Of a stretch of DNA of 64,000 nucleotides, positions 54,945 to 58,433 are shown piece after piece. Source of the stretch: Bacillota bacterium (lineage in GTDB: Bacteria > Bacillota > Limnochordia > DTU087). The translations under genes were made by a program, and so were the position numbers. The stretch's first letter is position 1. Each line of letters starts with the position of its first letter. The stretch lies in contig JAAYHH010000011.1 of assembly GCA_012735435.1 (NCBI GenBank), positions 14,141 through 78,140 on the forward strand. The letters run 5' to 3'. The notes under the pieces are model-generated. The model was not told the origin of the DNA. It ran no database searches and saw only the letters and a list, made by a program, of their open reading frames with translations.

Positions 54945-57900
54945 TTAGAAAAGTGACAGCTGGGAGGTTTTGGGAAGCCCGGCTAGTGCTCCGTGGGCAC
55001 CTAGGGTTTCAATGACCGTTCGACTGACGCCGCACCTCATCCTGATATCCTCCCATGATGCAAAGGGTCCCTCTTCCCTGCCCTGGGCCAGCATCAGGGC
55101 TGCCCCTTCCCCTACTCCCGGTACAATTGCCAGGGGCGGCCTCAGCTCTTCCCCTTCGATCACAAAGCGGTTGGGATGGGACTTGTATATGTCAACGGTA
55201 TGAAAATCTATTCCCCGGAGCATGGCCTCCATAACGACTTCAGCCACTGTCAGCAGACTTTTCTCTTTAGCAGTGGCGCTGCCGCCTTTGGCGGAAATGG
55301 AATGGATGATCTCCTTTACACCTGCAAGGCCGCCCGTGATCAGCTGAACCTCGAAGGTATTAACCCGGGTAGAAAAATAGGCAGCGTAATAGGCCAGGGG
55401 ATAATGTACCTTAAAGTACGCTATCCGGAAGGCCATGGTCACATATGCCACTGCATGGGCCTTGGGGAATAGGTAGCTGATCTTTTTGCAGGAGTCGATG
55501 TACCACTGGGGGACTCCTACTTTTTCCATGGCCTCAACGTCTTCAGGTCTTAATCCCCTTCCCTTCCGGACCCTTTCCATGATTACGAAGGCGGTCTCTG
55601 GTTCCATCCCCTTTTGAATAAGGTAATTCATGATGTCATCCCGGGTGGCGATGGCCTGGCTAAGGTCAGCAGTTCCGTTCTTGATCAACTCTTGAGCATT
55701 ATTGGTCCAGACATTGGTTCCATGGGAAAACCCGCTGATACGCACCAGTTCTCCAAAGGACTTGGGCCGGGTTTCCTCAAGCATCTGCCGGACAAAACGG
55801 GTGCCGAACTCAGGAACGCCCAAAGTCCCAACGGTAGTGCCAAGATCATCGGGGCTTATCCCTAAGGCCTCCACACTGGAGAAGATGCTCATGGTAGCAG
55901 GGTCATCAAGCGGTATATCCAGGACCGGCACTCCAGTCATATCCTCCAGCATCCGGAGCATTGTGGGATCGTCATGGCCGAGAATATCCAATTTCACCAG
56001 GTTGTCGCTGATGGCATTGTAATCAAAATGGGTAGTGATGGTGCCGCTGGCAGCATCATTGGCCGGGTACTGTACCGGTGAAAACTCGTTGATATCCCGG
56101 CCTTCGGGAACCACAATCATGCCGCCGGGGTGCTGGCCGGTGGTACGCCGCACTCCAGTACAGCCCTTGACCAGCCGGTTGATTTCAGCGGTTCTGGCAG
56201 TTTGCCCTTTGCTTTCTAAGTATTTGCACACAAAGCCGTAGCTGGTCTTCTCCGCCAGTGTGCCGATGGTGCCCGCCCGGAACACGTATTCTTTGCCGAA
56301 AAGCTCCTCTGTGTACTTATGAACACAGGCCTGATATTCCCCGGAAAAATTGAGATCTATATCAGGCACCTTTTCCCCGTGAAAGCCCATGAAAACCTCA
56401 AAGGGGATATCAAAGCCCAATTTTCGGTATTGTGTACCGCATTGACAGTGCTTGTCTGGCAGGTCGATACCAGTTTGTACTGAACCATCGGTAATAAATT
56501 CCGCATGGTGGCACTGGGGACAAACATAATGGGGCGGCAGGGGATTTACCTCGGTCACCCCGCAGAGGGTAGCCACCAGTGATGAGCCCACAGAACCCCG
56601 GGAACCTACCAGATAACCATCGCTGAGGGATTTTTTTACCAGCTTGTGGGCAATCAGATAGAGAACAGCAAATCCGTTGCCGACAATGGCATTTAGTTCC
56701 TTCTCAATCCGCTCCTTGACCAGCGGGGGCAGCGGATCACCATACAGCTTCCGGGCGTTGGCATAGGTCATCTCGGTGATCTGCTCTTCAGCTCCTTCGA
56801 TCTTGGGGGCATGCAGGCCGTCGGGGATGGGCCGCAGCTCTTCGATCATTTCCGCGATGCGATTGGGCCCGTGGATCACCACTTCCCTGGCAGTCTCTTC
56901 ATCGAGATACGCGAACTCCGCCAGCATTTCCTCAGTTGTCCGGAAAAACAAAGGTGCCTGCCTTTCAGCATCTTCATATCCTTGACCGGCCATCAGGATG
57001 CGGCGGTAGATTTCATCCCATGGATGCAGGTAGTGGACATCGCAGGTAGCCACCACCGGTTTTCCCAGACGCTCTCCTAGAGCAACAATACCCCGGTTGA
57101 TCTCCTCTAGGTCTTCTTGTGACTGGACTTTATCACCGATCATGAAGGCATTGTTGCCCAACGGCTGGATTTCCAGGTAATCATAGAAATCGGCTATTTT
57201 CATCAGCCGTTCTTCATCGCTGCCTTGCAGGAAAGCTTGGTACACTTCACCAGCTTCACATGCGGAACCGATGATGAGACCCTCTCGATACTTCTCAATC
57301 AATCGGCGGGGCAGACGGGGCCGGCGGTAGAAATACTTTAGATGGGATAGGGATACCAGTCTATACAGGTTGTGCAGGCCCTGCTGATTTCTAGCCAAAA
57401 GTACTATGTGATAGGAGGGAGCCCTGGGGTCATCCCCATCGATGAGATACCCTTCCATCCCGTAAATTATCTTGATGCCGGCCTTCTTGCCGGCGAAGTA
57501 AGCCTCGGGAAAAGCTTGGACGACGCCGTGATCCGTGATGGCAACTGCCTTGTGGCCCCAGCTTGCTGCCAATTGGATAATCTCTCCGACATCGACAGTT
57601 CCGTCCATAGCAGACATCTTGGTATGAAGATGCAGCTCAACCCGCTTTTCAGGGGCCTCATCCCGCCGAACAAATTCAGCGAGGGGCTCCTGGATCTCTA
57701 TGTCGTTGGGCAGCATAGTGAGCTCCTGGGTATAGCGATCCCACTGGACGGAGCCCCTCACCCGCAGCCAGACGCCCGGGCTGAGTTCCGGTGCCAGCCG
57801 GGGAGCATCTTCATCTTCGAAAAGCTTAAGGGTAATAGAATCGCGATAGTCGGTGAGGTCGATCATTACCAAGCGCCGACCGCTCCGGAGTTCCTTTTCC

Positions 57901-58433
57901 TCGACCTTGATGATTTCACCGGCAGTGACGTAGGAACGCTCTTCGTCGGTGATCTCAGCTATAGAACGGGGTTCCTCCCGGATAGACCGTCCCTTCAATA
58001 CGCCCCTTGAGCCTTTCTTGGCAGAGACTTCAGTTTGCTTGGGCGGGGGATCTTCGATGGCTTGGCGACTAGCCCGTTCCATTACATATGACATATAGGT
58101 AGCTTCGTCGGCAAGGAGGAGATCACTGATCGGAGGTTCAAGAGACTTGTGGTTTTCGCCAACAGCTACGTCAAAGGAAACTGACCGCACCCCTGGCAGA
58201 AATTTCACCAGGGCTTGACTTAAGGTGTCCAATTCTCGGCGACACAGTTCCCCTCCAGCTGCTAAACAGATTTTCCACTCCTGGCGTTGGCAGTGAACCA
58301 AGATTCTTTCTACAACAGCTCGGGCGGCTGTTCCTTCACAGCTTACTGGAAGTTGAGCCGCCCGCAGGAAATCTGATAGGGATTGCCCTTTGGTTCGGGG
58401 AGTTACTACATATACAGTTGCATTACCAGCCAC
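54945..58433 (-). CDS. polC: DNA polymerase III alpha subunit, PolC type, apparently lacking the inserted 3'-5' exonuclease domain
   Basis: PolC-specific N-terminal/OB region ([23 protein letters not shown]). PHP motif ([14 protein letters not shown] ... [16 protein letters not shown] ... [43 protein letters not shown]) with no intervening DEDDh exonuclease. PolC-type Zn module and polymerase core ([39 protein letters not shown]). Conserved rimP/proS synteny. 1162 aa, versus roughly 1430 aa for B. subtilis PolC. Confidence 0.85.
   Translation of the reverse strand: [1162 protein letters not shown]

Follow-up and report, generated by a model that had tools for sequence, protein, structure and literature searches.

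A PolC replicase naturally lacking the DEDDh exonuclease in a Limnochordia-like Bacillota genome

In most PolCs (86%), a 3′–5′ exonuclease (Exo) is inserted within the PHP domain, while the insertion is absent in 6% of PolCs, proteins that are still classed with the PolC group (Timinskas et al., 2014, NAR 42:1393, PMC3919608). Apart from one protein of the Thermotogae, these Exo-less forms were exclusive to Clostridia and Negativicutes, classes that pair PolC with DnaE1, and the division of labor between the two polymerases in such organisms was described as an open question (PMC3919608). A 2026 survey by the same group maps PHP and DnaQ proofreaders across bacteria and gives HHDHEH[C/H]DH as the nine-ligand “active” PHP motif (PMC12926913), and proofreading by the PHP domain is established for M. 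tuberculosis DnaE1 (PMC5636811). Here we describe an Exo-less PolC encoded in a 64,000-nucleotide stretch of DNA (hereafter the window) from an uncultured anaerobic Bacillota bacterium (assembly GCA_012735435.1, contig JAAYHH010000011.1, positions 14,141 to 78,140). The gene, polC, occupies positions 54945..58433 of the window; this gene and all other genes and domains placed below by window coordinates lie on the minus strand. Overall, we consider it about 70% probable that this is a natural Exo-less polC orthologue whose fidelity would be secured by PHP proofreading together with mismatch repair.

The architecture, which the first-pass annotation of the window had singled out, comes as no surprise: Exo-less PolCs have been catalogued since 2013 (PMC3919608), and the NCBI record of the window protein, NLY51446.1, is already named “PolC-type DNA polymerase III”. 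The architecture is already known, and the increments reported here are small. They are that the variant reaches Limnochordia-like Bacillota and dominates that sequence neighborhood, that the NII part of the N-terminal domain has been lost as well, and that the metal ligands of the PHP domain have been kept.

Identity and domain architecture of the window PolC

The polC open reading frame (ORF) is intact over 1162 codons from a GTG start, directly upstream of which the letters are GGAAAGGA; read in this way, it yields the protein length of 1162 aa given at first pass. A longer N-terminus is impossible because, ~30 nt before the polC start, the frame meets a stop and the upstream gene, encoding a GT2-family glycosyltransferase, ends. 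The protein passes both PolC equivalog models of NCBIfam, with 1523.3 bits for NF001688 (cutoff 873) and 1404.9 bits for TIGR01405 (cutoff 1043.45), whereas DnaE models give at best 245-258 bits, all well under their cutoffs of 434-1260. The best sequence match in the PDB is 3f2b, the PolC of G. kaustophilus, at 1245 bits in one unbroken stretch (aa 153-1162), and chain 3f2b_A is also the top Foldseek match of an AlphaFold2 model of the window protein, with a target-normalised template modelling (TM) score of 0.96 and a root-mean-square deviation of 2.4 Å. The mean predicted local distance difference test score (pLDDT) of the model is 86.5, rising above 90 across the PHP domain. Pfam recognizes the OB, PHP, DNA_pol3_alpha (551-959), finger, and HHH_6 domains, in the order of a PolC, with the OB domain before PHP and with both the tandem helix-hairpin-helix, (HhH)2, and a clamp motif placed C-terminally. 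A DnaE paralogue was rejected on the grounds that DnaE scores fall below their cutoffs and that the OB domain is N-terminal rather than C-terminal. With the PolC models passed, the DnaE models failed, and the gene in its canonical locus, the earlier assignment to a PolC orthologue rather than a DnaE paralogue was confirmed. That the ORF encodes a genuine PolC lacking the DEDDh exonuclease, in identity and in architecture, is in our judgment close to certain.

The PHP domain (aa 266-470, 57024..57638) is uninterrupted and is recovered as a single Pfam match (266-417). The PHP junction was compared in a MAFFT alignment of 121 sequences, comprising the window protein and its 120 best database homologues. 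The segment corresponding to aa 330-342 is 10-28 aa long in 114 of these sequences and 211-212 aa long in six homologues positive for PF00929, the long form opening with the ExoI motif FVVFDLETTG; in a single sequence (P0082) it consists of 82 low-complexity residues. The window PolC has an 11-residue loop (aa 331-341, 57411..57443; mean pLDDT ~90) at the place where exo-containing homologues carry the ~211-aa exonuclease, and the residues of the junction are kept in its closest relatives, e.g., as DGDDPKGPSYH in a relative 86% identical overall. A Pfam search of the protein returned no PF00929 (RNase_T) match, between the PHP halves or elsewhere, even at E ≤ 0.1, and a hidden Markov model (HMM) made from the exonuclease domains of the six homologues matched neither the protein nor the 64 kb window read in all six frames (best E 0.16). 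The TIGR/NCBIfam PolC match is split, with aa 338-1162 aligned to profile positions 612-1444, so that the profile's exonuclease block is passed over. These results agree with the first-pass description of an uninterrupted PHP domain without a DEDDh exonuclease; around residues 300-420, where that description would have been overturned by an exonuclease domain, the site of the insertion holds the 11-aa loop.

Outside the junction, the first-pass annotation had called everything canonical, which proved right for the OB domain, the palm and fingers, and the synteny, but not for the N-terminal domain, from which NII is missing, nor for the second knuckle of the Zn module. The OB domain (aa 170-247, 57693..57926; Pfam PF01336, E 3.1e-10) aligns to the OB domain of 3f2b. 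The polymerase motif DIDLN (56349..56363), with D691, D693, and N695, is of the PolC type, the Asn at this position being specific to PolC (PMC3919608), and falls in invariant alignment columns, as does the HDD motif containing the third acidic residue, D821 (55971-55973). Across the homologue alignment, PDIDLNF, HDD, and the four Zn cysteines C638, C641, C663, and C665 are all invariant. The tandem helix-hairpin-helix region (aa 1074-1154, 54972..55214; Pfam HHH_6, E 2.3e-11) precedes a β-clamp-binding motif read from the sequence at the very C-terminus, QLSLF (aa 1158-1162, 54948..54962), for which the PolC consensus is QL[S/D]LF (PMC3919608); C-termini of the form Q-[LIM]-x-L-F are common to the PolC homologues aligned. 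With its active site intact, the protein should work as a C-family polymerase tethered to the clamp. The Zn module CPQC...CQC (aa 638-665, 56439..56522) is present as had been claimed, with a second knuckle (aa 663-665, 56439-56447) that reads CxC, in the context HCQCG, instead of the usual CxxC. This knuckle is a one-residue deletion found in 13/121 homologues.

The shorter N-terminal region noted at first pass was likewise found, and it can be ascribed to the loss of NII with retention of NI. An hhalign comparison of the N-termini of the window clade with typical PolC N-terminal domains aligned NI (aa 10-90, 58164..58406) onto positions 9-88 of the typical domain with a probability of 97.4% (E 9.5e-12), and the AlphaFold2 model gives this subdomain a beta-alpha fold at pLDDT ~80. 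The Pfam families of the N-terminal domain, PF14480 and PF11490, had no match in the window PolC; in the published survey, an N-terminal domain could not be assigned in 7% of PolCs (Timinskas et al., 2014; PMC3919608). By alignment, NII (~70 aa) is absent from the window PolC and kept in the PolCs of Moorella and Thermosinus and in exo-containing PolCs. In its place is a linker (aa 91-150, 57984..58163) coinciding with the alignment gap of ~70 aa and modelled mostly at low pLDDT (<50 at aa 91-101, 103-108, and 122-142); residues 110-127 are predicted to form a helix. The NCBI record NLY51446.1 is 1049 aa long, starts at M114, and omits NI (window 58092-58433). The 1162-aa form with the GTG start is favored, since aa 1-113 are conserved in relatives of 57-86% overall identity and NI is confidently modelled, and the NCBI record is probably truncated at its N-terminus.

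Distribution and evolutionary history

A deletion of ~630 bp introduced by sequencing or assembly, or a pseudogene, could also account for a missing exonuclease, and the source of the window is a metagenome-assembled genome (MAG). However, the polC frame is intact over all 1162 codons, the residues of the junction loop are conserved in close relatives, the loop is modelled with confidence, and the same junction architecture occurs in >170 independent sequences, isolate genomes among them. Isolates with the short junction include Neomoorella thermoacetica, Moorella sp., Thermanaeromonas toyohensis, and Thermosinus carboxydivorans, to which dozens of independent MAGs can be added. Because the short junction is conserved across so many independent genomes (114/121 homologues, 61/80 loci), an assembly deletion or pseudogene was rejected, its chance being negligible, and the natural absence of the exonuclease put forward at first pass was upheld.

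Among 80 GTDB species-representative polC loci, 61 are Exo-less and 19 have the exonuclease. The nearest species representatives are MAGs from anaerobic digesters with 84-91% identity, including “Clostridiales bacterium DTU087”. A database representative 86% identical to the window PolC (P0002) stands for a cluster of which one member is labelled Limnochordia; as Limnochordia is a separate class of Bacillota, the range of Exo-less PolCs would be slightly wider than stated in 2013. In a neighbor-joining (NJ) tree of 196 PolCs, the window protein falls in a 21-member clade, all Exo-less, which adjoins a 97-member Exo-less clade of Limnochordia type. The gene order ispG-proS-GT2-polC-rimP-nusA-infB is kept in the window clade and in the Limnochordia-type loci, and the Exo-less PolCs of both are therefore orthologues and not extra copies. 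Together with ~120 close relatives in anaerobic-digester MAGs, the window PolC indicates that a C-family replicase in its canonical locus can dispense with a DEDDh editor, and here with NII too, and still retain the complete PHP ligand set.

Exo-less PolCs are also nested within exo-containing groups of Oscillospiraceae and Lachnospiraceae, and Fitch parsimony on the midpoint-rooted tree of 196 PolCs requires at least 7 changes of Exo state. A second tree was drawn from an exhaustive search (3060 matches at E ≤ 1e-30; 142 full-length top representatives, of which ~34 were Exo-less) and comprised 163 sequences, namely representatives at 50% identity rooted with a DnaE outgroup. On this NJ tree, whose basal branches are likely affected by long-branch attraction, 21 changes of Exo state were counted; of 100 bootstraps, 48 gave an Exo-less root, 27 gave an exo-containing one, and 25 were ambiguous. 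Because Exo-less forms are nested inside exo-containing groups, we favor repeated loss of Exo as the economical reading under parsimony, although some deep lineages may never have had the domain. It is conceivable that the “minimal” Limnochordia-like PolC, without Exo and NII, instead represents the ancestral state, into which DnaQ was inserted later; PolC would then have begun as a PHP-only proofreader, like DnaE1. We consider this quite doubtful, and the window clade itself is nested inside the PolC tree rather than basal.

Several related sequences are worth recording in their own right. In two PolCs, P0082 (1330 aa) and P0134 (1323 aa), the junction is of intermediate size, with 82 residues in the former, rich in Pro, Ala, Gly, and Asp and of low complexity, and 140 in the latter; both may be remnants of a decayed exonuclease domain. 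Loci L040 and L045, from Clostridiaceae and Ruminiclostridium MAGs, encode Exo-less PolCs ~51% identical to that of the window and are without ispG, proS, rimP, nusA, or infB as neighbors; they may be second, non-syntenic copies. The canonical PolC of C. thermocellum carries the Exo domain. Loci L004 and L006 are two polC contigs from a single MAG, DAIQRD01 (isolate CTOTU40582), with 74% and 71% identity to the window PolC; either the bin is mixed or, it seems, the organism has two PolC genes.

Candidate proofreaders and replicase role

The metal ligands of the PHP domain, whose inspection had been proposed at first pass, are all intact in the window PolC (H268, H270, D277, H302, E327, H342, C392, D465, and H467), and the pattern HHDHEHCDH is invariant in 121/121 aligned sequences; strong conservation of these ligands in PolC has been described (PMC3919608). 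Editing by PHP is for this reason the best supported of the three options raised at first pass, which were PHP-based editing, an exonuclease supplied in trans, and unusual replication fidelity. Among the PolC representatives at 50% identity, the full ligand set is present in 30/34 Exo-less and 65/106 exo-containing proteins (Fisher p = 0.003, phylogeny ignored). In C. thermocellum, which has PolC and DnaE1 and is stated to be without an epsilon subunit, the PolC mutation C669Y, affecting the Cys ligand of PHP, produced a ~30-fold mutator (bioRxiv 10.1101/2021.07.30.454558); C669 is equivalent to C670 of the G. kaustophilus PolC and to C392 of the window protein. A DnaQ-like or DEDDh domain was not found within ±10 kb of polC in the 61 Exo-less species-representative loci.

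These observations suggest a scheme in which the chain of NI, linker, OB, uninterrupted PHP, the Pol3 core and its Zn module, (HhH)2, and QLSLF would act as an active, clamp-tethered C-family polymerase, with 3′–5′ proofreading provided in cis by a metal-dependent PHP exonuclease. Post-replicative correction would fall to MutS and MutL, encoded in the same window by mutS (17120-19852, with all five MutS domains) and mutL (15278-17116, with MutL_C and DNA_mis_repair). We infer proofreading by PHP in cis from the conservation of the nine ligands and from finding no DEDDh domain in cis or nearby, and the chance that PHP is the operative proofreader of the window PolC seems to us somewhat better than even. 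Both the exonuclease activity of PHP and the place of PolC at the fork beside its presumed partner DnaE1 are inferred parts of this best explanation. Its implication would be comparative support, at the level of sequence, for PHP as a working proofreader in clostridial-type PolCs.

Several points weigh against PHP editing. The association between Exo state and PHP ligands in the Fisher test ignores phylogenetic non-independence, and ligand conservation is high in many exo-containing PolCs too, so that it could reflect a structural or another catalytic role. A pyrophosphatase activity has been proposed for E. coli PHP (PMC4822814), and our literature search found no exonuclease assay of a natural Exo-less PolC. 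Moreover, the scan for DnaQ and DnaE covered the 64 kb window, and most of the genome lies outside it.

Epsilon edits in trans for E. coli DnaE1, and a DnaQ-like, epsilon-type exonuclease encoded elsewhere in the genome could similarly dock on the window PolC or on the clamp. There is ample room for such a gene beyond the window, and standalone DnaQ homologues are common, averaging >3 per proteome (PMC12926913). Yet neither the 64 kb window nor the ±10 kb around polC in the 61 Exo-less loci yielded a DnaQ-like ORF, C. thermocellum, a PolC and DnaE1 organism, is stated to lack an epsilon subunit, and the PHP ligand set is complete, by which an external editor is not required. Editing in trans therefore appears unlikely. 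The first-pass annotation overstated the case in calling the window PolC the main replicase. We give a little more weight, still as a minority view, to the proposal that DnaE1, with an active PHP of its own, is the bulk replicase and that the stripped-down PolC is restricted or auxiliary, its editing mattering less. This possibility was raised by Timinskas et al., who cited Exo-less PolCs in its support (PMC3919608), and the many changes of Exo state (at least 7 on the 196-sequence NJ tree, 21 on the 163-sequence tree) suggest relaxed constraint on PolC editing in lineages with PolC and DnaE1; the loss of NII in addition to Exo points in the same direction. However, strong conservation of the gene in its canonical locus, together with invariant polymerase, clamp-binding, and PHP motifs, argues for an essential, processive function of PolC, and since a PHP mutation in PolC alone makes C. 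thermocellum a 30-fold mutator, PolC must synthesize a substantial share of the DNA in that organism. No DnaE gene was found within the 64 kb window, and the only DnaE seen was at an unrelated locus (L079).

A replicase without any proofreading, of intrinsically lower fidelity and with a raised mutation rate that is tolerated or exploited, is very improbable here: the window PolC and every member of its clade keep all nine ligands, and mutS and mutL are intact. Editor-less PolCs may nevertheless exist elsewhere. Four of the representatives at 50% identity (P0216, P0224, P0235, and P0263) are Exo-less with degenerate PHP ligands, e.g., HRSLENSDQ, and judged from their sequences they would have no recognizable proofreader; with lengths of 854-904 aa, three of the four are short and could represent fragments or divergent paralogues.

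Neighboring genes and comparison with described systems

By Pfam, the genes around polC are, in order, dxr, rseP, ispG, proS, GT2, polC, rimP, nusA, infB, a DHH phosphoesterase gene, and truB, which bears out the rimP-polC-proS synteny reported at first pass, with the addition of the GT2 gene between proS and polC. Downstream of polC lie rimP (54162..54626), nusA (52376-54139), and infB (49520-51709); upstream are the GT2-family glycosyltransferase gene (58465..59175; PF00535) and proS (59117..60874; tRNA-synt_2b, tRNA_edit, and HGTP_anticodon), whose 3′ end the GT2 gene overlaps by ~59 nt. The GT2 gene was detected in 39/57 Exo-less species-representative loci and sits between proS and polC in 8/8 loci for which coordinates were at hand; being common to Exo-less loci and in the same position, it is a lineage-typical insertion in an otherwise canonical locus.

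Other features of the window were noted in passing. The 318-bp intergenic region between polC and rimP (54627-54944) contains a sigma-70-like sequence, TTGTCA-N17-TATACT, and has potential structure; an Rfam scan of 54000-59500 gave no match at E ≤ 0.1. NusA is 587 aa long and has after its KH domains a long, extremely acidic (D/E-rich) C-terminal region of ~230 aa (52376-53100); in some relatives, tblastn aligned only the first ~350 aa of nusA, and by the composition profile the AT skew is strongly negative from 50 to 54 kb. A 428-aa ORF without a Pfam match (40519-41805) stands beside a gene for a DUF3866 protein (41870-42982), the pair being located between a histidine phosphatase gene and pnp. 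The window further encodes a protein with a TonB_C domain (29721-30647), a channel of the ExbB/MotA type (31102-31743), and a protein with an SLH domain (26018-27574). In a Bacillota genome, these are a hint of a diderm cell envelope of Limnochordia-like type, in keeping with a close PolC relative being labelled Limnochordia.

The nearest described relatives by architecture are the Exo-less PolCs of Timinskas et al., which, like the window protein, belong to the PolC group, come from anaerobic Firmicutes, lack the Exo insertion, and retain the PHP ligands and the clamp motif; the relatives from Moorella, Thermanaeromonas, and Thermosinus belong to the taxa of that study (PMC3919608). Unlike the PolCs of Moorella and Thermosinus, those of the window and of the neighboring Limnochordia-type clade are without NII, and the window protein has in addition the CxC form of the second Zn knuckle. 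For biochemical work, a naturally minimal PolC could be sought in Limnochordia-like bacteria.

In sequence and structure, the closest match to the window PolC is the G. kaustophilus enzyme (3F2B, 3F2C, and 3F2D), and in 3F2B both the N-terminal domain and the Exo domain are absent (PMC3919608). This structure was solved with DNA, dGTP, and metals bound, and so the two PHP halves can fold without the exonuclease. We take 3F2B to be an engineered construct, in which the entire N-terminal domain was removed and Exo was exchanged for a linker of the GSGSG type. The window PolC has instead a natural deletion, a shorter loop, and a retained NI.

The window PolC also resembles DnaE1 of M. tuberculosis and DnaE of Thermus in being a C-family polymerase without an integral DEDDh domain and with the nine-ligand PHP signature (PMC5636811, PMC12926913). 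In those DnaE proteins, 3′–5′ editing is done by a trinuclear metal site in PHP; the M. tuberculosis and Thermus enzymes belong to a different group of the C family, with a C-terminal OB domain and no Zn module. With canonical PolCs, such as those of B. subtilis, S. aureus, and E. faecium (9QPC), the window protein shares the OB-PHP-Pol3-Zn-HhH order, PDIDLNF, the clamp motif, and the proS-polC-rimP-nusA locus, but the canonical enzymes carry a DEDDh exonuclease of ~200 aa inside PHP and a full N-terminal domain of NI and NII.

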